DNA from: Polyangia bacterium
GTDB taxonomy: Bacteria; Myxococcota_A; Polyangia; JAAYKL01
Assembly (NCBI GenBank): GCA_050287845.1
Contig: JBNKCR010000007.1
Location: 30,930-94,929, forward strand
Length of the DNA stretch: 64,000 nt
Direction: 5' to 3'
The translations under genes and the position numbers were made by a program. Positions 678 to 33,506 of this stretch are shown here, piece by piece; position 1 is the stretch's first letter, and each line of letters opens with the position of its first letter. The notes under the pieces are model-generated. The model did not search any database. It saw only the letters and a list, made by a program, of their open reading frames with translations, and was not told the DNA's origin.

Positions 678-3600
678 ATGAACATTAATTGTCCAGGGTG
701 TAACTTCGAATACAAGCTTGATGAACGCAGAATTCCAGCCTCCGGGCAGAAAATGCGGTGCCCGAAATGCAGCGCGTCCTTTAAGGTGACCAAAGAAGGC
801 ATCATCGCTGATACTGCATCTGCCGAACCACTGAGGAAAGCCTCCACCGGTATGCCACCTGTACTCGGGAATTCGAAGTTCAACCCCGGCAAAAGCGGCG
901 ACATTGACGACCCATTTGGCGATACCAGTCCAACCTCTGGCTCGAACAGCGACAGCTGGGGAGATACATTCGACGAGCGCCCGGACATCGGCTCCCCGAC
1001 GGATCCGTTTGGCGACCCTTTTGCGTCGGCCCGAAAAGAAAAAGGCAACCGCCCCGGCAACCCAGCCGCTTCTGAACTGCCCAGACCGCTGTCCAGCACC
1101 GACCTGCCCCAAATCGCGATGCCATCTGAATTGCCCAGGCCCATATTCATTTCGAATTTGCCGTCACCTGCCGATCAGATTGACATTCCGGACCGCCCTG
1201 CTGCAGGGATTTCAGAACCCGGTGCCGCCGATCCCTTTGGCGACATCGGCATCCCCGACGGAAATGATCCATTCGGTGAACTGGACAATATTTCCATCGG
1301 CCCCGAGACAACTCATTCTTCGGAAAATGAACCGGTTCATGAGGATGCAGACATCCACATGGACGATCCATTCGGCGCCATGCCAATATCTCCGTCAGTC
1401 CCACCTTCCCGACCATCCGTCGGGGAACCGGCAGACGATGCCCCCTCGTTCGCCCCTTCAGCCATTCCATCCATTGAACCGGATGATTTTGATATTCCCT
1501 CGCCAGCGGACCTGACCAGTATTCCGCCGGAACCAATCGCCTCTGCCAGACATTCCGTCTCCGTGAGCACAGGAAGCAGTCTGGATGATTTTGGCAACAT
1601 CGATTTGCAGGGGGACATTACCGACAGTATTCCACCGGGAGCACGTCTGTCCGCTAATCCGACAGCTGGAACCACCGATTTTGGACAGTTGGATCCGGAA
1701 TTCGGACAGCAGGATGAGTCGGGGGAATTCGACGCGTTTCCGGTTCAGGAAGAAAATGACAATAGGCTGGCTGCTGCACCCGTGTCAGATGATTTGGATT
1801 TGGTGGACGCCCCGATTCGAAGTTCCCTCAATGAGGACGCATTTGGCGGCTTACCACAATCCACCGTCGCCGGTGACCGAACCAAAGAAAAAGCCGAACA
1901 GAAAGGAGCCGGCGCATTTGAGGGACGTCGCAGGTATGAGCGGCAGAGCCGAAAAACCAAAATTATCCTCATGCTTATATTACTGCTGATTGCCATTGTC
2001 GGGGGCTCACTGCATTTTACCCCCTACGGTGTGTTTGGCGTGAATGCGCTGGTCTCGCTGATGCCGGACGCCACTGCGGATGAGCGGGTGAAACGCATTT
2101 TCGCAAGTACTGTGAACGCCCTCGACAAAGATACCTTTTATGATGTCAACAGAAGCATCACGGAACTGACGCAAGCCAGAGCGGAACTGGACCAGAATGA
2201 GGACCTGCGGATTATCGGTGTATATGTTCACAGCTGGCATCAGCTTCGATTCGGCATTTCCGACGCACAGAACGCCCACGAAAAGGCAGCTGTATCCCTG
2301 CTTGGAAACATTAAACTGGCGGAGTCGCAGTCGCCGTACGCCGGCATTGCAACTTATACCAGGCAGATTCTCTCGGACAAAAATGATGTGGTCATCAAAG
2401 CGCTCTCCTCAAAACCCAACTTGTCCTCCAATGAAGCAGCGCTTCTCGTTATGGCCCATCTGAAACAGAACAATCCGCAGGGCGCACTGGACGCAGTCCG
2501 CAAAGGAATTCGCAAGCGGGTCACCCCGAGATTCGAGTATCTGAAATCTATGGCCCTGTGGCGATTGAAAAAAATGGCAGAGTGCACAAAGACACTCACG
2601 TCGCTCATAAATTCGGAGCCAAATCACTTTGATGCGCGACTCCTCCTGGCCGAACTGATGGTGCGGGAAAAAGAAAAGGATTCGCAGAAGGTGACGGAGT
2701 TGCTGACCCCCATCCATGAGTCCGACGAACACCACGCCAACAGCGCACAGAAAGCTTTCGTGCATGCCCTGATGGGAAAGATGCTGCTGCAGCGCCGAAA
2801 GCTTGACGAAGCTAAAAATGAATTCACCAAAGCCCGATCGCTGAATCCCAAAGATACCCTTATGCTGAACGGCATTGGAACACTGGCACTGATGAGCGGC
2901 GACTTACCCGGCGCGGCCACATCGTTCAGAGCAGCGATGCGGGAGGATCCGGACAATACGGAAGCCACGCTGGGGGCGGCAGCCACGTTGATTCAGCAGG
3001 GGAACGATGAGGAAGCCAAAGCGCTGGTTTCTCCCATCCTTCAGAACGATCCGGAGAACCCGGTCGCCCATTATCTGTCCGGTGTTCTGGCCCAGGGAAT
3101 TGAACAGTACGAACCGGCGCTGTCGGAGTACAAAAAAGCCATCGAGCTGGATAATGAGTACATCGAAGCCTACGTGGCCATGGCCACGGTATATATGGCT
3201 CTGAAGCAGAACAGGGAAGCCATGAAAACCCTGGACGACGCAGCGAAGGCAGTGCCTGGCTCCGCACTTATCAAACTGACCCTGGCCGATAGTCACGCGG
3301 AGAACCAGGATTACGCGTCCGCTGTTGTCAATTTGAACGAAGCGCTGGAAATAGAGCCGGACAACCCGATTATTCACTTCAAGATGGCACAGATGTACCG
3401 AAAAATGGAAGAACTTGAAGATGCGCAGAATGCCCTCGACGAGGTTGCCCGTATTGACCCGGCGTACCCGGGCCTGTCGGTGGAGCAGGGCTATCTGATG
3501 GAACTTTCAGGAAAAATTTCCGATGCGCTGCGGACTTATGAAGCCGCTCTCAAAAAGAACCCGGATGATCTGTCTGCCAAAACCCGCGTGGCAGCGGCAT

Positions 3601-4355
3601 CGATTTATCAGGGGAATCTCGATCGGGCCAAGGAACTGCTGGTGGATGTGCTGAATGAAAACGCAGATTCTCCGGATGGTAACTTCTATATGGGAGAAAT
3701 ATTCAGACTGGAGCGCAGCGGTCCGGATGCGGTCCCCTATCTGAAGCGGGCGACAGAGCTTGATCCGGCCAATCCACTGTATTTTGTGCGCTATGGTGCT
3801 GTGCTCTTCATGATTCACGATATGGGCAAAGCGGTGCAACAGTTCGAAAAAGCCATGGCGCTCGATCCGAATATGGCGGAAACCTATATTCGAATCGGCG
3901 AGCTGAAACTGCGTTCCGGCTCCATCAAGGCAGCCATAGAGCAATTCACCAGGGCACTGGAACTGAATCCGGAAATTGAAAACGCCAATATCTTTATCGG
4001 ACAGGCGTACGAAGAAATGGCGGATCTGAAATCCGCGTCCACGTATTACCAGAAGGAAACAAAGCAGTTTCCGAATAATCCGGAGGGATACTATCGCCTT
4101 GGCAAAGTATTTCTTCAGACCAAAGGAAATCAGAGCGGCATCGCACCGTTGAGGACGGCGATTCGATTGGCCGAAGCCCGGAATCCCGCCCCCTATTGGT
4201 TGCCGGATGCACTGTACTACCTTGGAATTTCTCAAAAATCCACCAACGACCGTTCCGGCGCCATCGCTTCGTTCAGGAAATATTTGGAAATTGCGCCGGA
4301 AGATGCTATCGACCGCGCAGAGGTTAAGGCGTCACTCGATAGCTTGCTGTACTGA
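678..4355 (+). CDS. Zinc-ribbon + low-complexity linker + single TM + multi-TPR protein
   Basis: N-terminal CPGC..CPKC finger (MJ0042-type), acidic/Pro-rich region, TM IILMLILLLIAIVGG, then many TPR repeats; ATG 678 follows AAGGGAG, preferred over 564. Confidence 0.85.
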   Translation: MNINCPGCNFEYKLDERRIPASGQKMRCPKCSASFKVTKEGIIADTASAEPLRKASTGMPPVLGNSKFNPGKSGDIDDPFGDTSPTSGSNSDSWGDTFDERPDIGSPTDPFGDPFASARKEKGNRPGNPAASELPRPLSSTDLPQIAMPSELPRPIFISNLPSPADQIDIPDRPAAGISEPGAADPFGDIGIPDGNDPFGELDNISIGPETTHSSENEPVHEDADIHMDDPFGAMPISPSVPPSRPSVGEPADDAPSFAPSAIPSIEPDDFDIPSPADLTSIPPEPIASARHSVSVSTGSSLDDFGNIDLQGDITDSIPPGARLSANPTAGTTDFGQLDPEFGQQDESGEFDAFPVQEENDNRLAAAPVSDDLDLVDAPIRSSLNEDAFGGLPQSTVAGDRTKEKAEQKGAGAFEGRRRYERQSRKTKIILMLILLLIAIVGGSLHFTPYGVFGVNALVSLMPDATADERVKRIFASTVNALDKDTFYDVNRSITELTQARAELDQNEDLRIIGVYVHSWHQLRFGISDAQNAHEKAAVSLLGNIKLAESQSPYAGIATYTRQILSDKNDVVIKALSSKPNLSSNEAALLVMAHLKQNNPQGALDAVRKGIRKRVTPRFEYLKSMALWRLKKMAECTKTLTSLINSEPNHFDARLLLAELMVREKEKDSQKVTELLTPIHESDEHHANSAQKAFVHALMGKMLLQRRKLDEAKNEFTKARSLNPKDTLMLNGIGTLALMSGDLPGAATSFRAAMREDPDNTEATLGAAATLIQQGNDEEAKALVSPILQNDPENPVAHYLSGVLAQGIEQYEPALSEYKKAIELDNEYIEAYVAMATVYMALKQNREAMKTLDDAAKAVPGSALIKLTLADSHAENQDYASAVVNLNEALEIEPDNPIIHFKMAQMYRKMEELEDAQNALDEVARIDPAYPGLSVEQGYLMELSGKISDALRTYEAALKKNPDDLSAKTRVAAASIYQGNLDRAKELLVDVLNENADSPDGNFYMGEIFRLERSGPDAVPYLKRATELDPANPLYFVRYGAVLFMIHDMGKAVQQFEKAMALDPNMAETYIRIGELKLRSGSIKAAIEQFTRALELNPEIENANIFIGQAYEEMADLKSASTYYQKETKQFPNNPEGYYRLGKVFLQTKGNQSGIAPLRTAIRLAEARNPAPYWLPDALYYLGISQKSTNDRSGAIASFRKYLEIAPEDAIDRAEVKASLDSLLY

Positions 4356-4401
4356 CGCATCGTATTTTTTTCGACAAATCGAAAATTATAAGGAAGCTGA
4401 C

Positions 4402-5166
4402 ATGAATACGGAAATGAAACTTCACCTTGCCCGATATATGAAGTATCTGGATGAAGAAAAAAATGTGCTGGTTGTCATCGGCAACCTGGAAGAAATCCTT
4501 ATCAGTCAGCATCTGTATGAACAGCATCATGGTATCTCATCGGACAATAGCGACACCCTGAACCGATTGCTCAATGCCTGCGCACTGGCTGCCGCCAGTC
4601 TCTCTGAAAAAGAATCATGGGGCTGGACACTGACCCTCCCCGGTTCCGCCAACGGCTATTTTGTAGGTGTCGAACCGGAAGGCATGATTTGCGCGCGGAC
4701 GAAATCCGCCGATTCGAGAATGGCCAAAGCGTACCTCCAGCGCCAGACCCGAAAGGGGCCACTGATGCAGAGTCATTTCGAACCGGCGACCGATTGTCCG
4801 GTAAAAACGATTACCCAGTACTTCAACGAAGTGGTTCAGACAGAAACCCGGATGGTTGTCAGCGACAGAACCGGCATCCTGGTGCAGGCATTGCCCGATT
4901 CCCGATTTTCATCGTTGAAGGCACTGACTGACGACCAGGTGCACGATATGTACGTGGAGATGCAGCAAAAAGAAGAACTGAAGACCATGGAAGAGTATCT
5001 GGTTTTTTATGAGTGCCGCTGTGATGAGGAGATGATCTACAAAATGGTGGAGAATCTGCCCGACCACCAGAAAGACACCCTTTTTGAGGATCATCTCGTG
5101 ATTGAGATTCAATGCCCCAGATGCGGCAGGCAATATACGGCGAGCAGGAACAATCGTCCCAACTGA
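4402..5166 (+). CDS. hslO: Hsp33-family redox-regulated chaperone (divergent)
   Basis: C-terminal ECRC...QCPRC zinc motif and GILVQALP segment; ATG 4402 after AAGGAAG. Confidence 0.72.
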   Translation: MNTEMKLHLARYMKYLDEEKNVLVVIGNLEEILISQHLYEQHHGISSDNSDTLNRLLNACALAAASLSEKESWGWTLTLPGSANGYFVGVEPEGMICARTKSADSRMAKAYLQRQTRKGPLMQSHFEPATDCPVKTITQYFNEVVQTETRMVVSDRTGILVQALPDSRFSSLKALTDDQVHDMYVEMQQKEELKTMEEYLVFYECRCDEEMIYKMVENLPDHQKDTLFEDHLVIEIQCPRCGRQYTASRNNRPN

Positions 5167-5189
5167 CCCAGCGGAACTGAAGGTGTCCA

Positions 5190-6035
5190 GTGCGAATCAT
5201 GGAACACAACATCATACTTCATCCGGATTCAGACCGAACCCGCCCGTCTTCCTGCCTCCAGCCCTCAGACGCTGTTTTCAGAATTGCCCTTGCTGGCATT
5301 GGCGTGTGCATCGCCCTGATGGCTTCCCGCGTGAATGGAGCCGATACGCCCTCACCCATGGCGCAGGCCTTCCGAAGCGGTACCGGAAACGCCATTGATG
5401 TGACGCTGGAAACCGAGGAGAAAAACGGTACAACCGTTATGCGGGCAGCCGGTCTGACTCGGGAATGCTATCTGTGTACCCATCAGATGCGACTGGCTTC
5501 GGCCCGGGATTTCGGTGTGACGGTGTTTGCGCATCTTCAGTCCACCGAAGCGGCAAAACTGCAGCTGAGCGGTTTTGCCGATACCCGCGTCACCTGGATA
5601 GATGGCATCGCTGTACCGGGCCATCTGTTGGAACTCCAGGTGATTCCCGGCCCCCACCTGGTGACGGTACACCAGAATGGTGAGACTGGTATACTGAAAC
5701 TGAACCTCGCAGCCGACGGCAGACAGACCCTGTCTCCAACGGATTTTCAATTCCCCCATTTCAGGTCCGGACTGCGGAATGCGGGAATTCTGCTGGCAAC
5801 CCTGGGCGTCATTGCCGCTGCATCGGGCGGCGTTTTATTATATTACGACGGTGGATGCGCAGCGAGCGTTTCGGCAGATGGGGAATGCAGTCCAACCCAT
5901 GAGACCCTTGCGCCGGGAATTGTATTTTCCTCACTGGGCGCCGCCATGGTTGGCGTGGGGATTACCATGCTGATAAAGCGAAGCCGGCTGAAAAAAGAGG
6001 CGAAAAGGCAATTCACGGGGGGGCTGGCGAAATGA
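5190..6035 (+). CDS. Hypothetical membrane protein with possible PEGA-like domain
   Basis: N-terminal hydrophobic segment, WIDG..PGPHLVTV beta motif, two C-terminal TM segments; start uncertain. Confidence 0.55.
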   Translation: MRIMEHNIILHPDSDRTRPSSCLQPSDAVFRIALAGIGVCIALMASRVNGADTPSPMAQAFRSGTGNAIDVTLETEEKNGTTVMRAAGLTRECYLCTHQMRLASARDFGVTVFAHLQSTEAAKLQLSGFADTRVTWIDGIAVPGHLLELQVIPGPHLVTVHQNGETGILKLNLAADGRQTLSPTDFQFPHFRSGLRNAGILLATLGVIAAASGGVLLYYDGGCAASVSADGECSPTHETLAPGIVFSSLGAAMVGVGITMLIKRSRLKKEAKRQFTGGLAK

Positions 6036-21740: not shown

Positions 21741-23717
21741 ATGAAATTTTTCAGATTGAAAAAATTGGGAATCACCATGGCATCATTGCTTGGTTTTTCC
21801 GCATTGTCCGGCAGCGTGCTTGCACAGGATATGGAATTTACGAAGTCACAGAGACTGAATGATAGATTCGCCATTGAACCCGTGAATGCCAACATCGAAT
21901 CAATTACCGGTCTCACGGAGTTGACCGACGCTGAATATGATCGAATCGACAGTCTTCCTGTCTGGGAAAAAAGTGCGGATGCGTACATCGGTCCTATGGA
22001 AACGCCGGAGCTTCCACCCCGTTCGGTGGACAATTCGACCCAACCCTATTTCCGCCCGATTTTCAATCAATCCGGCGGAAGCTGCGGCCAGGCGAGTGGA
22101 ATTGGCTATAACTTCACTTACGAAATGAACTACGTTCGAAATTCAGATGCCTCTATCACGGACAATCAGTATCCTTCTCATTACACATGGAACTTTCTGA
22201 ATGCCGGTTCCGGCGCAGGTTCCTGGTATTTTGATGGCTGGGACATTATCAAGGCCAATGGTTGCCCCAATGTGACGGAATGGGGTGGAATGGCCGTCAG
22301 CAGTACCAAATGGATGACCGGTTACGACGACTATTTTTCGGGCATGAATAACCGGGTAGTCGACTATCAGCGAATTAATTCGGTAAACACCACTGGTGGG
22401 CTGGATAATCTCAAGCAATGGATTTACGACCGGGGTGATGCCTCCGCTGTTGGCGGTCTCGCCAATTTTGCGGCGTATATCTCCAACAGTGACTATGTTA
22501 CTCTGGAAGCGGGAACCCCTGATGAAGGTAAAACCATGTTGGTGCAATGGGGAGACTCCGGGTATCACGCCATGACTATCGTGGGTTACAACGATGACGT
22601 TCGGTATGACTTCAATAATGACGGATACTATACCAATAATGTCGATATTAACGGCGACGGCGTGGTCAACATGTCCGACTGGGAAATCGGGGCGTTGATC
22701 TTTGCCAACAGTTGGGGAACATCATATGGTGACAATGGATTCGCGTACATGGCATACAAGGCCATTGCCGATCTCGACAAACGGGGGCAGCCTGCTCTCA
22801 CATGGAACGCCGTTCATATTTTGAACACCAAAGCGTCTCACGCGGTCACCGGTGCACTCAAGGTCAATATCACCCACCCCGATCGAAATGATTTGAATGT
22901 CATAGCAGTTGTGGAGCAAAATGGCAGCACCTATACCAAAGCCTATTACGGAGCCTTTGCCAACGCTGGCGGAGACTGGCCCATGCAAGGTTCCACTGGT
23001 CCGGACAATATCGAAGTTGGTCTGGACGTTTCTGATTTACTCGCTCAAATCGATTTGAACCAATGCGCACACATCAGTCTGAAAATCACCGAAACCGACA
23101 ACGATACAGCGTCAGACGGTATGGTCACTTCTCTTTCACTGATGGACTATACCAGCGGCGCGACTGAAATCGTTAGCCCCGACACCAACGTTTCCATCAC
23201 CGATAATGGCACCACCGTTGTCACCGTAGATCGCAATTGCGACGTTATTCCACCGACTGGAGACATTCGCATTGAATACATGACATACAAGCCAATGGTT
23301 CAGACCAATTCGCCATCTGTAAACATTCGAATCGAGAACGTCGGGGATACTACACTCAACCTCGCGGACATCGAAGCCGAATACCATTACACCACAGAAT
23401 CCACCGGTCAGGTTGAGGAAGGACAAATCTACTACGCCGCTCACATCCCCTCCTGGCAATACATCGGAAACTACGTGAATGCCGATGTTGAAATTGTCGG
23501 CGGCGAGGGTATCCTTGTCATCTCCTTCGATGCCGAAGCGGGAACTATCGCCCCCGGAGAAATTGTGGAAGTCAAGTCCGCCTTCCATATGATTGACTGG
23601 CAGAATTACAACCAGACCAACGACTATTCCTTTGGCATGGTTACATCTTACCAGGAATGGACCACCATTGGCGGATTCATCAATGGCGCTCTCGTCTGGG
23701 GAACGGTACCTTTCTAA
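21741..23717 (+). CDS. Secreted papain-like (C1) cysteine peptidase with C-terminal CBM3-like domain
   Basis: Signal peptide; NQSGGSCG, GYHAMTIVGY, ANSWG; C-terminal IENVG..LNLADI..YHYT..DWQNYNQTNDYSF..LVWGTVP. Confidence 0.85.
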   Translation: MKFFRLKKLGITMASLLGFSALSGSVLAQDMEFTKSQRLNDRFAIEPVNANIESITGLTELTDAEYDRIDSLPVWEKSADAYIGPMETPELPPRSVDNSTQPYFRPIFNQSGGSCGQASGIGYNFTYEMNYVRNSDASITDNQYPSHYTWNFLNAGSGAGSWYFDGWDIIKANGCPNVTEWGGMAVSSTKWMTGYDDYFSGMNNRVVDYQRINSVNTTGGLDNLKQWIYDRGDASAVGGLANFAAYISNSDYVTLEAGTPDEGKTMLVQWGDSGYHAMTIVGYNDDVRYDFNNDGYYTNNVDINGDGVVNMSDWEIGALIFANSWGTSYGDNGFAYMAYKAIADLDKRGQPALTWNAVHILNTKASHAVTGALKVNITHPDRNDLNVIAVVEQNGSTYTKAYYGAFANAGGDWPMQGSTGPDNIEVGLDVSDLLAQIDLNQCAHISLKITETDNDTASDGMVTSLSLMDYTSGATEIVSPDTNVSITDNGTTVVTVDRNCDVIPPTGDIRIEYMTYKPMVQTNSPSVNIRIENVGDTTLNLADIEAEYHYTTESTGQVEEGQIYYAAHIPSWQYIGNYVNADVEIVGGEGILVISFDAEAGTIAPGEIVEVKSAFHMIDWQNYNQTNDYSFGMVTSYQEWTTIGGFINGALVWGTVPF

Positions 23718-23966
23718 CCTATTGACCCGCACTCCAATCCCTTTTCTGAATTTTATCTCCTGCGCATTGCGTGATGATTTTCTGTAGTGGTCTCCACACA
23801 ACATTAAATGATGTTCTGCAAAAAAAACTTGGGAATATTCCTGACGTCGCATAAACTGAAGAAACAGGAAATCAATTCAGTTCAATATCAAATTTCAGAC
23901 TGCTTCCGGCAAATACGTCGGGCCTATGTTCGGATGCCTGTGACATTAATCAGACGGAGGTTATCC

Positions 23967-24989
23967 ATGAAAATCAAAGAGAATCAACTGTTTCCCTATG
24001 CCCTTCTGGGACTGGTCATGATGCTGACAGTGGGATGCACCGATTCCAACGACAACACTGCAAATAACGATTCCGAAAACAGCTCTTCTTCAGATACTGT
24101 CAACGACACGGAATCGACCAACACGGATGATACCGGGACGAACACGGAAAACGACACGGGCCCGGACTCGCAAACCGGCTCGGAAACATCGTCGGACACG
24201 GATTCTCCCACCGACAATGAATCGGAGTCGGACTCCCATTCGGAAACAGACACGGATACCGCCTCCGATTCAGCCACTGGTTCAGACTCTGATCCTTTCC
24301 CGGACACCGATACCATTACGGATTCAACGGAAGAAACAGACTCCGGTACCCACACCGATTCTGAAACCTCTTCAGACACAGCCGCTGACACAGGCACCGA
24401 TACTGGGTCGGATTCAGTGACCGATACAGAATCGGATACCGACAACCCGAATCCATGGGGATTCACTGTTTCAAACCCCAGCACCCATACTCTGCATTGT
24501 GACGATCCTGCAAATATATTCGATGGAGAAATTGAAGTATCCGATCGTCACTGGCTCTGTACTTTCAAAGAGGGAAGCACAGAGGGCGTCCTGTTTATTC
24601 AGGCCATTCCCGAAACCTGCGTTGTCATGATGAGCCCCCTGATAGAGTACAGCATCGGTGTGGCTGAAATTTCAATCGATGGCAACCTGTTTCAGCTCGA
24701 CGATGTGGCCTATGATTCCGGGGGAAACCATCTCAACGATTCTCTTGGATTTACCTACAGTAACCGCAAGTATCACTACGAGCATTCGTCCTATGGTGTG
24801 GGGTATCGCAGTTGCCAGAATATGGACTGCGCAAATGTCAGCAATCTGAACGACGATGTTGTGGAAAACGGTTGTACCTGCGATCGCACCCGTCCCATCG
24901 TGTGCGTAAAACAGGCAGCTGACGGCAGCTTCCCTCCCCTGGTCGACACCTTCAAAGTCTGCGAGACCGACCCGGATTGCGGCGATTGA
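23967..24989 (+). CDS. Hypothetical lipoprotein with long Asp/Thr/Ser linker and Cys-rich C-terminal domain
   Basis: GGAGG SD before ATG 23967; LTVGC lipobox; ~135-aa D/T/S tract; ten Cys in the C-terminal domain. Confidence 0.75.
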   Translation: MKIKENQLFPYALLGLVMMLTVGCTDSNDNTANNDSENSSSSDTVNDTESTNTDDTGTNTENDTGPDSQTGSETSSDTDSPTDNESESDSHSETDTDTASDSATGSDSDPFPDTDTITDSTEETDSGTHTDSETSSDTAADTGTDTGSDSVTDTESDTDNPNPWGFTVSNPSTHTLHCDDPANIFDGEIEVSDRHWLCTFKEGSTEGVLFIQAIPETCVVMMSPLIEYSIGVAEISIDGNLFQLDDVAYDSGGNHLNDSLGFTYSNRKYHYEHSSYGVGYRSCQNMDCANVSNLNDDVVENGCTCDRTRPIVCVKQAADGSFPPLVDTFKVCETDPDCGD

Positions 24990-28450: not shown

Positions 28451-29851
28451 ATGATGCGACTACATGCAACAATAATTTCAATATTGATAGGAGGTCTGAT
28501 GATTTCTGTCAGCTCCTGTTCGACGAACGACAATTCAAGCACTTCGGCACCGGATTCTGATGTCGATTCCGATTCAGATTCCGATGCCGATTCAGACTCA
28601 GATACAGACAGTGACTCGGATACAGACAGTGACTCAGATACAGACAGTGACTCGGATACAGACAGCGACTCGGATACAGATGCCGATTCCGATTCAGACA
28701 CGGACACGGACTCAGATACAGACACGGACGGTGACACGGATACGGATACGGACAGCGACACGGACACCGAAGCGTTCAACTATCATCTGGATGCGCCGAA
28801 TCCCTGCTATAATACATTTTATGCGGAAGGATGCTCGTGGGATGACCCGAATTCCACCTGTGGGGGGCAATGTGCGGTGGCCAACTCCTGTTCTCCACCG
28901 GAGGATGCAAGCAAAGCTGATTTGCCTAAAACCTTCATCTGTCCGCGTTTCATGTTGTTCAGCGCTGAGATGATGCAAGCCGCCAAAGATGATGCAACCA
29001 CATACAACTGGAGCAGCGAACCGGAACCGCCATTTTACTACGGCATTGTTGGTCACGATGCGGACATCAATGGGCTGGATGAAAATACCAGCAGTTGTTG
29101 CCAGTGTTATCAACTGGTCTTCGAAACGCCGGAACCCAGCTCACCACAGCCGCCAGAACTTCCCTATCCAAAGCCACTGGTGGTCCAGAGTTTCAATACC
29201 GCCGCCGGCGGCGGACAAAAATTCGACCTGTTCATGGGGGCTGGGGGATACGGTGCATTCAACGCATGCTACAAAGACCCGGAGTTTGTCAACACCTCTA
29301 CTTTCGGCGAATTCATGTATGATGAATTTCCGTATCAGAACCCCGGCTCCGGCGGTATTTCATTCCTGCGATATCAGGATGAATGCCTTGGTTCTTCATG
29401 GCCGCCAACCGCCGATGCTTTAGCGTCTGATGCCTGCAGGGAACGGATTGAAGAATTGTGCAATCAGGCCTATTCAAGCGCTTCTGACGCCATGACAGAA
29501 ACAACCCGAAATTCGTGCATCAGAAGCAATAGGCTGGAATCCCTTTATCATCAGAACTGGAAAGTGCGGGCGAAACGGGTTCGATGTCCGGAGAATCTCA
29601 CCCGGGTAACTGGCTGCAGATTGATTGAAGACGATTTACCCTTACCGGATCCAACGATTCAAACGCCGGCCGACGCAGAAGCGGACGGTACATATACCGC
29701 CAAAGACCAGTATGGTACCACCACCATGCAGGATTGTTGCAAACCCACCTGTGCATGGATCGATTGGGTGGGCGGGTACGATCTGCCAGTGGACGGCGAA
29801 TGGAATTCCTTTTACTCCTGCGATAAAGACGGTGTGCCCATCACCCAGTAA
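28451..29851 (+). CDS. GH45-like endoglucanase lipoprotein, circularly permuted, with DS/DT linker
   Basis: VSSC lipobox; [33 protein letters not shown]...TGC, then [14 protein letters not shown] at the C-terminus. Confidence 0.82.
28552..28769 (+). repeat. Coding tandem repeat (18-bp unit GACTCRGATACAGACAGY) encoding DSDTDS
   Basis: Units start at 28595, 28613, 28631, 28649 with a partial unit at 28667, inside a wider D-x repeat. Confidence 0.88.
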
Positions 29852-29911
29852 CAGACCATCGCACATCCCTTCCCGTGCATGTAAACGCCACACACATATT
29901 CACCTGAAAAA

Positions 29912-31327
29912 TCAGAACTGAAAGTAAATAAACGGCGCGACATCTGTCTGGGCCAATTGTTCAGATGCGACAATCAGCAAAATCACAACCGATGCCTGAA
30001 TGTATGATGGCAACCTGTCAAACCCGTGTTTCGCCGTCTCCATCCAGTTTGCGGGCACCCAGTGAATCGCCAGCGCTCCTGCCAGAACCCCTACCGCCGG
30101 CAAGGCCAGGTTTGTGATACCTAAGCCTCCTGTTGCGATTCCCTCAAAAATTCCGATTGCGGTCGAAAAGTCAGCAGCGCGGAAAAATATCCACGCGGCA
30201 CACACCACATGAAAAGTAAGCACTGTCGATAATAATTTTGCCATAAAAGGCGACAGATGGGTCTTTATTCCCGAACGCTGCGCCACTCTTGTCAAAACCA
30301 ATGTCAGCCCATGAATCGCCCCCCAGAAAACAAAAGTCAACGCGGCACCATGCCACAGGCCACCAATCAGCATCGTCGCCATCAGGTTGAAGTACGTTCT
30401 GGCCGCACCACTCTTTGATCCCCCCATGGGAATGTACAGATAGTCACGAAGCCATGTGGAAAGTGAAATATGCCAGCGTTGCCAGAAATCCCTGAGATTC
30501 GTCGCGGTATACGGTGCATTGAAGTTAATGGGAATTTCAAATCCCAAAAGTGCTGCGGACCCGATGGCGATATCGGAGTATGCGGAAAAATCCGCATAGA
30601 TCTGAAATGCATATCCATATACGGCTGCCAGAATTTCCAGACTGCTGTACATCTGCGGATTGGAAAAAACCGGATCGACCAGATGCGCACCGATATAATC
30701 CGCAATGACCACTTTTTTCACCAGACCAAAACCAATGAGAAAAATGGCGCGACTTCCTTCTTCGGCGGATACACGCGGAACCATCCAGAACTGAGGCAGC
30801 AACTTTTTGGCCCTCACAATGGGACCTGCCACCAGTTGGGGAAAAAACGACACAAAAAGCAGATACTGAAAATACCATTTCGCCGGTGTAAGCTCTTTTT
30901 TGTAAATATCAATGGTGTAGCTCAGCGACTGAAATGTGTAGAAAGAAATTCCCACCGGCAACAGCACGTTCAGATGCCACGGCTCAAGGGATAGACCAAA
31001 CACCGCCGCCAGCGCTGCGAATTCACGCGAAAAAAAGTTGAAATATTTGAATACACACAGAATTCCCAGGTTCACAAAAATGCTCAGGGCAAGAAGCGTC
31101 CTGCGCCCATTCGCACTGTTACTTTTATGAATGGCACCGCCAACAAAATAGTCAAGAGAAGACGAGAACGCAATGAGACCCAGATAAACAGGATTCCAAC
31201 TGGCGTAGAAAACATAACTGACGACCAGTAAAAATAGGATTCTGACGCGCTGGTGATTGCCCAGAAGCCACGCACCACCGAATGCTATCAAAAACAGGAT
31301 GCCGTACTGGATTGAGTTAAACGCCAT
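29912..31327 (-). CDS. MBOAT family O-acyltransferase (AlgI/PatA-like)
   Basis: LPVGISFYTFQ, FFPQLVAGPI, QIYADFSAYSD, FWQRWHISLSTWLRDYLY, GLWHGA, FIYFQF; start MAFNS at 31327. Confidence 0.95.
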   Translation of the reverse strand: MAFNSIQYGILFLIAFGGAWLLGNHQRVRILFLLVVSYVFYASWNPVYLGLIAFSSSLDYFVGGAIHKSNSANGRRTLLALSIFVNLGILCVFKYFNFFSREFAALAAVFGLSLEPWHLNVLLPVGISFYTFQSLSYTIDIYKKELTPAKWYFQYLLFVSFFPQLVAGPIVRAKKLLPQFWMVPRVSAEEGSRAIFLIGFGLVKKVVIADYIGAHLVDPVFSNPQMYSSLEILAAVYGYAFQIYADFSAYSDIAIGSAALLGFEIPINFNAPYTATNLRDFWQRWHISLSTWLRDYLYIPMGGSKSGAARTYFNLMATMLIGGLWHGAALTFVFWGAIHGLTLVLTRVAQRSGIKTHLSPFMAKLLSTVLTFHVVCAAWIFFRAADFSTAIGIFEGIATGGLGITNLALPAVGVLAGALAIHWVPANWMETAKHGFDRLPSYIQASVVILLIVASEQLAQTDVAPFIYFQF

Positions 31328-31976
31328 TGCCCCTCTCCGGGTGAACAGAACGCCCATTGAGCCATTTCCAAATCTGCTTCGCCCAGATGGTGGATTGTCG
31401 CTTATCCAGATGAAATACCTTACTTTGTCGGATTTCAAATTCGATTTCTCTGGAGTCAAGGAAAACACAGGGTTTGGATGCAGCCTGAAGCATATCGTAG
31501 AAACCATTTTTGTCTTCAATCAATGGAGGCGGCGCCACCCAGTAACACTCACGTGGTGCAATTCTTTCAGCCACACGTCGGACGTATCCGGAATATTGCG
31601 ATGGATCATCTGCACGGCTGATATTGGTTCCAAGATTGACAATCACCACGTGGGGTGCTGTTTTCTGAAGCACACGTCGGAGCTTTCCCGAACGCAGCCA
31701 GGAGCGGCTACTCGATCCTTTCCACGCATAAACGCTGTAGGTGGCTCCGGCCTGCTTGAATTTTCTTTTCAGGGTTCCTTTAAGACCCCAGTTTTCAAGA
31801 TGGGAATCTCCGATATGAAGGACGCGAACATCATGCCAATCACGCGCCGACTTTGCCGAAGAAGCGACATCGTGGACAGATTTTGCGGGAAGGGCAACTG
31901 CGATGGCGCCGGCACATATCAACGTGGCGAGCAAGATAGTGTATCTCAAAATTTTCACACTCTCCATAAACATCAA
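31317..31976 (-). CDS. SGNH/GDSL hydrolase-like exported protein
   Basis: Signal peptide, IGDSH block I, NLGTN block III, terminal His (KVFHL). Confidence 0.75.
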   Translation of the reverse strand: MMFMESVKILRYTILLATLICAGAIAVALPAKSVHDVASSAKSARDWHDVRVLHIGDSHLENWGLKGTLKRKFKQAGATYSVYAWKGSSSRSWLRSGKLRRVLQKTAPHVVIVNLGTNISRADDPSQYSGYVRRVAERIAPRECYWVAPPPLIEDKNGFYDMLQAASKPCVFLDSREIEFEIRQSKVFHLDKRQSTIWAKQIWKWLNGRSVHPERGNGV

Positions 31977-32111
31977 AGCGGCCCATTTGCCAAGATCAGA
32001 AGTTCGGAAAATGGGCCCCTTTTTATATCAATATAACAAATAATAAAGACATTTTTTCCATATTTATATATAATTACAATTGGGGAGGCGGAAAGGTTTT
32101 GTTGAAAAATG

Positions 32112-32140
32112 TTGTCTCCTGTAAGCAAGAGTGGTATAAA
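32112..32140 (+). promoter_or_regulatory. Putative sigma70-type promoter
   Basis: TTGTCT-17 nt-TATAAA with upstream TG, preceded by an AT-rich tract. Confidence 0.45.
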
Positions 32141-32147
32141 TACTTAC

Positions 32148-33506
32148 ATGGAAGCACTTTATCACACTTTATTGCCGAGTTATATTGAGCGACGCCTGGA
32201 GATGGTGTTGTTGATGGGGTTAAGCGCTTTCATGCTGTCGTGTCCAAATGTGGAAAAGGTCCATCCCAAAGGCACAGACAGCGCAAACGATTTTCTTTCC
32301 ATCGCGGATTCTCCCGGCGATGACGACGATTCCGGTGCAGATGTGGGGCCCGCAGGACTGATGGATGATCCCCGAGTGGGTATCGAAGTACCTCTCACCG
32401 GAAACGATCCCATGATAGGGTTTTATGAATCGTTGAGTTCACTGGAATCCGGAGAGCGGAAAAAAGTCCATGTCCTCCACTATGGGGATTCTCATACTGC
32501 CGCGGATTTCCTGACGACCACTATTCGTAGAGCACTGCAGCACCGATTTGGTGACGGCGGGCGCGGATTTATTCTGCTAGGTAAACCCTGGCGTTCCTAT
32601 CGTCCCAAAGATATTGAAGTTTCCGCCACCGGTGATTGGCAGGCAGAGAGAATCCTGATTGCCGCCGATCCGGCCGAACTGGATGGATTTTATGGGCTTG
32701 CAGGGATTACCACCGCCACATCAACGCCGTTTGCCCGCTCATTTGTTCAGACCAACCGGGATAGCGGTTTTGGCAAAGAAGCGTCACTGTTTGAATTGTT
32801 CTATATGGTACAGCCCAAAGGGGGCAAGTTGAAAGTCTTCGTGGATGGCAAACAGAAAGGCACTGTATCCACTGATGGCGACAGAAAGCGAAGTGGCTTT
32901 TTTAAGGTGAAAGTCAATGAGGGTGCACATGAATTTGAAGTTCGCACTGTCGGTGACGGTGAAGTACGACTGTTCGGTGCCGCGGTGGAAGCGGAACGGG
33001 GACTGGTTTACGACGCCCTCGGTGTGAATGGCGGCTTCTTTTATACCCCCCATCGATGGAACGAAACAGCGCTGCAAAAACAAATTGCCGAGCGAAACCC
33101 CGACCTGATAGTCACCATGTATGGTACCAATGAATCGGGATCCAGGAGTATTACGCCCGAAAGCTATAAGGAAAAAGTCCGCACCACTATGAGCCGATTT
33201 TCCCATGGCGCTCCAAACGCGTCCTGCCTGATGATTGGTCCACCGGATCGTGTTTCGAATAATGGCGAAGGTGAGCGCCTTACCTGGATTATCCAGGTGC
33301 AACGGGAAGTCGCAGCCGAAATCGGATGTGGTTTCATGGACCTGCGCGAAATGATGGGGGGAGAAGGTGCCCATCAGATCTGGCAGGAAGTATCCCCAGC
33401 CATGGCGCAAACCGATGGCATCCATTTAACCGTTCGCGGTTACATGCTGCTCGGTGAACGCATCGCTAGAGAAATTATTACGGCGTACGACGACCACAGG
33501 AAGTAA
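32148..33506 (+). CDS. SGNH/GDSL esterase or acetyltransferase lipoprotein (PatB/Ape-like)
   Basis: MLSC lipobox-like, HYGDSH, FGDGGRG, LGVNG, YGTNE, DGIHL; start 32148 chosen from promoter position. Confidence 0.85.
   Translation: MEALYHTLLPSYIERRLEMVLLMGLSAFMLSCPNVEKVHPKGTDSANDFLSIADSPGDDDDSGADVGPAGLMDDPRVGIEVPLTGNDPMIGFYESLSSLESGERKKVHVLHYGDSHTAADFLTTTIRRALQHRFGDGGRGFILLGKPWRSYRPKDIEVSATGDWQAERILIAADPAELDGFYGLAGITTATSTPFARSFVQTNRDSGFGKEASLFELFYMVQPKGGKLKVFVDGKQKGTVSTDGDRKRSGFFKVKVNEGAHEFEVRTVGDGEVRLFGAAVEAERGLVYDALGVNGGFFYTPHRWNETALQKQIAERNPDLIVTMYGTNESGSRSITPESYKEKVRTTMSRFSHGAPNASCLMIGPPDRVSNNGEGERLTWIIQVQREVAAEIGCGFMDLREMMGGEGAHQIWQEVSPAMAQTDGIHLTVRGYMLLGERIAREIITAYDDHRK

Follow-up and report, generated by a model that had tools for sequence, protein, structure and literature searches.

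The window, the whole stretch of 64,000 nucleotides that was analysed, contains the open reading frame (ORF) P0001, whose parts are listed in Table 1. Its product is a predicted lipoprotein in which the signal peptide ends in VSS-C23, a sequence that resembles a lipobox. An Asp/Ser/Thr repeat linker separates this end from a cysteine-rich domain of 359 residues (residues 108-466); domain numbers, where they are used below, are ORF numbers minus 107. Linkers of the type (D[S/T/A])8+ occur in 251 ORFs of more than 200 residues in the window's genome, including its three canonical GH45 proteins (L005, L006 and L007), which have the same lipoprotein and linker architecture, and lipoproteins of this lineage apparently often use such a linker as a spacer. 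A further example lies at 23808-24989 of the window.

Table 1. Features of ORF P0001, in window coordinates.
Feature	Position	Strand	Remark
Whole ORF P0001	28451..29851	+	466 aa; predicted lipoprotein with permuted GH45 domain
Signal peptide with lipobox-like end VSS-C23	28451..28519	+	Lipidation predicted
Asp/Ser/Thr repeat linker, residues 24-107	28520..28771	+	From sequence
New N-terminal extension, domain residues 1-36, four Cys	28772..28879	+	Without confident canonical counterpart
GH45 core, canonical columns ∼47-233; five of the six predicted long barrel strands, plus insertions	28880..29617	+	
D259, putative equivalent of the Humicola catalytic acid Asp121	29225..29227	+	From alignment
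Linker after VTGC, between old C-terminus and old N-terminal strand	29618..29710	+	
Relocated old N-terminal segment, canonical columns ∼3-40; predicted sixth barrel strand	29711..29839	+	
D428, putative equivalent of the Humicola catalytic base Asp10	29732..29734	+	From alignment

Convergent with the GH45 gene, at 29912-33506, lie genes for an MBOAT protein and two SGNH/GDSL proteins, a cluster of the polysaccharide or peptidoglycan O-acetylation type. At 21741-23717 (+) a 658-residue secreted protein combines a weak Peptidase_C1 (papain-like) match and a QxxxSCG motif with a C-terminal CBM3-like module; it is possibly a cellulose-targeted cysteine protease. Nine neighbours from the window were sought beside homologues of P0001 (loci L010-L124), and none recurs there save for CBM-type matches and the window's own locus. 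A functional tie to the MBOAT/SGNH O-acetylation genes, or to other neighbours, was rejected because these neighbours are not conserved beside the homologues.

Chain order of the GH45 domain

The initial annotation, made from the sequence letters and their translation, proposed a circularly permuted GH45 endoglucanase in which some 35 residues had moved behind the old C-terminus. The motifs on which it drew were recovered in the claimed order, at the claimed codons and within one ORF: CCQCY at 29096 (C216), D259 at 29225, C379 at 29585 and D428 at 29732. The relocation stands, with its extent revised to about 40 canonical columns; the linker preceding the moved strand, given as ∼25 residues, proved to be 35 residues long from VTG to TTMQD (family median 33, range 20-59, in the 120 rows scored).

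Both phmmer and a family profile, run against the PDB, found GH45 subfamily A (GH45-A) enzymes as the best matches, in pieces that are out of order: the core lies mid-protein, CPxxLxxxTGC follows, and the canonical N-terminal motif DCCKPxCxW comes last. Profile-profile comparison (hhalign) of the family with canonical GH45s aligned the core with P=99.5 and E 2e-22 and the moved segment with P=94.6 and E 7e-8, the two being non-collinear; the second match spans 38 columns and reaches a later S-C-x-x-x-G motif. The canonical profile used here was built from 127 mostly bacterial GH45 domains, seven from the genomes in this study and 120 from a search. Rotation of this profile was tried at 24 cuts; at the best of them, column 40, the separate scores of 156 and 60 gave way to a single match of 205.5 (E 7e-30) over 227 columns, so that two non-collinear profile matches merge into one upon rotation, as the permutation proposal had anticipated. 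With the single query sequence, a weak test, rotation raised the full score from 34.8 to about 46 and did not merge the matches into one domain.

The order recurs across the family. Homologues fall into 597 clusters at 90% identity, with 163 representatives, some of them fragments, at 50% identity and E≤1e-10. From 394 matches, 317 had a domain span of 240-480 residues and 138 remained at <75% identity; the moved segment follows the core in 122 of these 138 non-redundant rows, 15 are too weak to place, and one, L134, is a canonical GH45 brought in by the canonical viral scan. Canonical controls have the normal order in 120 of 120 cases. A motif search of the top proteins likewise found the permuted order in 97 of 121 and the canonical order in none, the other 24 being unscorable by regular expression. 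Removal of L134 and one frameshifted row gave the 136-row alignment used below, which still holds a few fragments and L135, a protein described later.

Could the order nevertheless be spurious, either an assembly artefact or the product of a C-terminal DCCKP-like motif that arose by chance or convergence? Taken as a single sequence, the moved segment matches weakly, with 8.5 bits against the PDB and 12.7 bits, at residues 428-442, against a profile of canonical columns 1-42, and a Pfam hmmscan of the full protein reports no PF02015 or other GH45 match. The best of 1000 shuffles of the domain scored 8.7 bits, however, so that the 12.7-bit match is more than chance. Misassembly is excluded: the junction is crossed by contigs of two other studies, one from an ∼86% identical relative (X4, spanning 29489-29894) and one of 265 nucleotides (X2, spanning 29534-29798), and an 84% identical orthologue is present in another metagenome-assembled genome (MAG). 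Together with the homologue clusters, the order test and the profile rotation, these contigs effectively refute the spurious readings, to which we attach a negligible probability; the extent of the moved-segment profile match, and the joint loss of cysteines across the break described below, also speak against them.

Existing models capture the lineage in part. In the genome search PF02015 scored the query at 25.5 bits, or 27.7 with neighbouring pieces, for a gathering cut-off of 27; the canonical GH45s of the same genome, by comparison, score 117-147 bits, and some distant permuted members lie above the cut-off, at 39-46 bits. NCBIfam recognised the low-complexity linker only (MSCRAMM models, far under cut-off), and a PHROGs scan of the ORF gave no match. 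As to whether such proteins had already been annotated, 43 of the top 120 homologues carry an automatic GH45 label, derived from partial Pfam matches, and the permuted order was found in no record.

Predicted fold and disulfide framework

An AlphaFold2 model built on a 145-row alignment has a pLDDT of 96.9 and a pTM of 0.94, with the moved segment at pLDDT ∼98, and contains six long strands at domain residues 89-94, 112-120, 136-142, 150-154, 263-270 and 314-319. The double-psi barrel expected of a GH45 domain is predicted, and it matches GH45-A structures: the top ten Foldseek matches are all GH45-A (probability 0.99-1.00), and among 48,161 representative chains two only reach Z≥5, again both GH45-A (Z 12.3-12.4). 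Comparison of the model with GH45-A structures by VIA, in which the top matches are likewise all GH45-A, gave Z 11.6-12.5, with an rmsd of ∼3 Å over 169-177 residues and 24-28% structural identity. In the alignment with Humicola 3eng, residues 7-295 of the model pair with residues 25-213 (Z 12.4, rmsd 3.1 Å, 177 residues), leaving unaligned the first 24 residues of the canonical enzyme and the last 64 of the model, as a permutation predicts for an alignment that keeps chain order. A BFVD fold search gave no match at E≤0.001; the nearest ESM Atlas cluster by features is an automatically named GH45 cluster of 335 residues (0.95), which we regard as a lead only.

The nearest known counterparts are the GH45-A endoglucanases (PF02015) of Humicola insolens (EGV/Cel45A; 2ENG/3ENG/4ENG, 1HD5), Thielavia terrestris (5GLX/5GLY), Neurospora crassa (Cel45A; 6MVI/6MVJ), Melanocarpus albomyces (1L8F/1OA7) and Cryptopygus antarcticus (5H4U). 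The query shares with these the predicted barrel, the acid motif FDxxxxxGGxGxFxxC, the base motif DCCKPxCxW, the CC/GxCY and CPxxL motifs and the cysteine framework. In all solved GH45-A structures found here the base lies on the first strand, whereas in the query, permuted at about canonical column 40, the base strand is no longer at the N-terminus of the domain. The query domain is also much larger than the ∼210 residues of GH45-A because of its insertions and new N-terminal extension. GH45 subfamilies B and C (Mytilus 1WC2, Ampullaria 5XBU, Phanerochaete PcCel45A), expansins and loosenins have the double-psi barrel and the acid Asp in common with the query, but match it with Z scores of only 2.3-4.0.

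In a few rows, cysteine pairs that span the break in the chain have disappeared together. In domain numbering, 166/322 is lost in two clean rows (P0159 and P0184; two further rows with neither residue are frameshifted fragments), 40/323 in two (P0131 and P0135), 109/327 in three (P0157, P0165 and P0191) and 57/350 in one (P0217), counts that are small, at one to three rows per pair, with some of the rows being kin. The canonical counterpart of 40/323, the pair 13/50, is also lost together once. We take these four pairs to be the Humicola disulfides, and their joint loss supports the view that the moved segment would be tied to the core by disulfides at the same places as in canonical enzymes. 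In the structure that we envisage, the moved strand, domain residues 314-319, would complete the barrel and would be held there by the disulfides C273-C429, C147-C430, C216-C434 and C164-C457 (ORF numbering). Held in this way, it is predicted to place D428, the putative general base, across the cleft from D259, the putative general acid, an arrangement to which the cysteine losses and the pLDDT of the moved segment lend indirect support.

We conclude that the observation of GH45-A motifs in permuted order is confirmed. The interpretation offered in the initial annotation, a permuted domain with both catalytic Asp residues kept, is supported by the profile rotation, the fold, the co-loss of cysteines and hundreds of homologues. 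Natural permutations of this kind have parallels among carbohydrate-active proteins. Judging from the titles of cited references, permuted domain topology has reportedly been described for a GH3 subfamily, and a permutation for a pair of CBMs. The relation of GH70 to GH13 is a further natural example according to sections of a published account (PMC11046441). In all of these, as in the query, the catalytic motifs are kept and the point of entry into the chain has moved, although the folds differ.

Active site and substrate

Both catalytic Asp residues are conserved throughout the 136-row alignment. D259 (domain D152) aligns to canonical column 130, the Asp of the (H/Q)FD motif, with a posterior of 1.0 and is Asp in 134 rows; D428 (domain D321) aligns to canonical column 11, the Asp of the DCCKP motif, with a posterior of 0.98 and is Asp in 129, with four gaps. 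In Humicola EGV (HiEGV), an inverting mechanism involving Asp10 and Asp121 is described in sections of two papers (PMC5829257, PMC10909974), the first of which gives an Asp-Asp distance of 11.3 Å. Sections of the same papers describe GH45 subfamily C as being without the base Asp; the query does not share this trait of subfamily C, expansins and loosenins, since its base Asp is present and conserved. The chemistry of the permuted family is probably GH45-like, to judge from these alignments.

The surroundings of the base are another matter. The change from RYWD to TMQD pointed out in the initial annotation extends to the family as a whole: among 127 canonical sequences the base is preceded by Arg (125), Tyr or Phe (105 and 22) and Trp (126), compared with Thr (119; T318), Met (124; M319) and Gln or Glu (84 and 34; Q/E320) in the 136 permuted rows, where domain T317 is also Thr in 126. 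The Tyr8 position, Tyr or Phe in all 127 canonical sequences, is thus Met in 124 of the 136. At canonical column 76, which is presumably Ala74 in the usual numbering, Ala is invariant (127/127) and aligns to Gly94, Gly in 119 of 136 rows, with a posterior of only 0.44, so that Ala74 has probably become Gly in the permuted family. Domain His260 is present in 128 of 136 rows beside a conserved Asn, at a position where canonical enzymes appear to have Ala (posterior 0.27). Finally, the Asp114-type loop Asp is absent from the query, as had been claimed, and from its whole clade, but such a loss is not peculiar to permuted proteins: the residue is kept in 31 of the 136 permuted rows, mostly on a giant-virus-rich branch with the sequence NSGxDV, and a third of canonical bacterial GH45s (41 of 127) lack it as the query does. 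At the three accessory positions that mark GH45-A, the query therefore offers Met, probably Gly, and no Asp. Sections of Busch et al. (PMC6509783) link Tyr8, Ala74 and Asp114 to activity in GH45 and report that, in beetles, Ala74→Gly and Asp114 changes accompany either lost activity or a turn towards xyloglucan.

How, then, might the protein work? The explanation that we prefer, and hold to be fairly probable, is a GH45-A-type domain with its first ∼40 residues placed C-terminally, folded as a six-stranded double-psi barrel; anchored by a lipid, the protein would attack cellulose or some similar beta-glucan as an inverting endo-beta-1,4-glucanase. The starting points of this explanation are three results shown above, namely the order of the motifs, a rotation near canonical column 40 and the conservation of both Asp residues. 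Hydrolysis would proceed by single displacement with inversion, by analogy with Humicola Cel45A. The protein would be exported and anchored through a lipid on Cys23, the Asp/Ser/Thr linker would serve as its spacer, and the enzyme would be one of a large set that the cell directs at cellulose. In its favour, CBM2, CBM3 or CBM10 modules are present on nine of the top 120 homologues, and P0122 carries two CBM3. Against it, most close homologues have no CBM, their N-termini being of CarboxypepD_reg type or of low complexity; the changes at the Tyr8, Ala74 and Asp114 positions, the small number of cysteine co-losses and the absence of conserved neighbours that would point to a pathway also count against it. 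The window's genome (96% completeness) encodes 10 GH9 proteins over cut-off, 23 GH5 and three canonical GH45, and GH18 was not found in it.

The same fold and two-Asp chemistry might instead serve a remodelled -1 subsite that has moved the main substrate off plain cellulose, towards xyloglucan, glucomannan, mixed-linkage glucans, algal or dinoflagellate wall glucans, or some other beta-1,4 glycan such as chitosan. The family-wide replacements before the base, the probable Gly for an invariant Ala, the near-invariant His260 and the large insertions all lend weight to such a shift, and in sections of PMC6509783 small alterations of the active site are enough for beetle GH45s to take up xyloglucan or glucomannan as substrate. 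Full-length permuted copies occur in four of 301 genomes across the phylum, and three of these four, among which kin do not count as independent cases, also carry a canonical GH45, a co-occurrence that suggests non-redundancy. GH75 chitosanase has the same barrel, as stated in sections of PMC9485262; no GH75 structure appeared among the fold matches at Z≥2 in the 48,161 representative chains. Against this stand the CBM2/3/10 fusions and the GH5- and GH9-rich genome in which no GH18 was found, which point to a cellulose-type substrate, and the frequent absence of the loop Asp from canonical bacterial GH45s; taken together, we think a shifted substrate rather unlikely.

The alteration of three activity-linked residues also bears on a more radical reading, that of a non-hydrolytic or weakly active protein which, like a loosenin or expansin, binds and loosens cellulose; these proteins have the same barrel, according to sections of PMC10909974. 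Yet both Asp residues remain 95-99% conserved down to 25-30% identity, and the fold resembles GH45-A, with Z ∼12, far more than it does expansin or cerato-platanin, which reach Z 2.1-2.4; this reading is improbable.

Distribution and history of the permuted lineage

Relatives of the query are encoded in 148 stretches of the genome collection. The 80 listed come from MAGs labelled Deltaproteobacteria, Myxococcales, Polyangia, Anaeromyxobacter, Fibrobacterota (Chitinispirillaceae) and Proteobacteria, and the permuted homologues include CBM-fused proteobacterial proteins. Among 41 related genomes, 10 carry full-length permuted copies. The window's genome has a second intact permuted paralogue with 47% identity (L002, G000:C126:79394-80470) and a decayed third copy (L003, G000:C64:∼1770-1975), in which the frame is open only over the C-terminal part. 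At another locus, L116 (G150:C59), two permuted GH45 genes are convergent, one of them fused behind a long Cys-rich repeat run in a 1064-residue open frame.

Permuted proteins also occur outside bacteria. Amoebophrya, a parasite of dinoflagellates, has two distant members, P0244 (CAD7943338.1) and P0256, with DCS replacing DCC. Of 12 viral loci with distant permuted members, 11 carry the label GVMAG; the giant-virus MAG contigs L103-L114 encode secreted permuted GH45s of ∼320 residues that keep the Asp114-type loop residue, and at the three viral loci scanned the neighbours include genes for helicases, DNA ligase, ribonucleotide reductase, DnaJ and UFD1. Loci L132-L134 carry canonical-order GH45s.

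The canonical scan of viral contigs brought up a second permuted GH45 on the viral contig L135 (IMGVR_UViG_3300017730_002202; 2788-3951 and 4025-5701), downstream of a ribonucleotide reductase gene; it keeps THYWDCC, carries a CBM1 and adjoins a GH5 protein with two CBM1. Its 24 relatives comprise seven permuted proteins (group II), 13 canonical and four that could not be scored. The L135 model is weak (pLDDT 61, with the C-terminal 42 residues below 50), and GH45-A was still matched. The cut of L135 follows the Cys that corresponds to canonical column 50, whereas the query's family (family I) carries that Cys at its front; the cut points of the two therefore differ.

In a tree of 71 rows over 100 shared core columns (34 family I, seven group II and 30 canonical, without fungal or animal rows), family I forms one clade with support of 100/99 and group II nests among canonical-order relatives with 98/84. 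A separate origin of group II is favoured by this placement, although a topology that unites the two permuted groups survives the AU test (p=0.175). No tandem-duplication intermediate was seen among 150 listed representatives. A FastTree analysis of 134 columns, omitting 12 fragmentary rows, set the Asp-retaining members apart on their own branch, with the bacterial clade of the query nested deeper in the tree; support near the base is modest. On our preferred explanation, a single ancient permutation would have given rise to family I, which would then have spread among bacteria, protists and giant viruses, and the query's clade would later have lost the Asp114-type loop residue.

A bolder history may be entertained, tentatively, as the less probable course: that circular permutation of GH45 took place two or more times, with different cuts, and that the larger lineage forms a subfamily not yet recognised, in which the active site has been rebuilt and which has a substrate or catalytic aid of its own; cellulolytic bacteria would display it on their surface, and Amoebophrya and giant viruses would use it to breach cellulosic host walls. 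The rebuilt site would comprise Met, Gly and the new His in place of Tyr8, Ala74 and Asp114.

What we describe is a real and conserved circularly permuted GH45 lineage. It is apparently undescribed: no permuted GH45, and no report of a GH45 in Amoebophrya, was found among the listed results of searches of the open PMC and bioRxiv literature. We infer that the lineage works like subfamily A, from which it departs in chain order and accessory residues. GH45 is a textbook and industrial cellulase family, and Pfam labels the permuted lineage only partly, reaching a minority of the top homologues and not, in hmmscan, the query itself. Because hundreds of clusters are captured in this partial way, inventories probably undercount the cellulolytic enzymes of Myxococcota/Deltaproteobacteria, Fibrobacterota, protists and giant viruses. 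The conserved changes at three activity-linked positions offer a direct test of what GH45 catalysis needs beyond its two Asp residues, the shifted termini change the possible fusion sites for binding modules, and the two natural cut points provide a ready case for how permutations arise.
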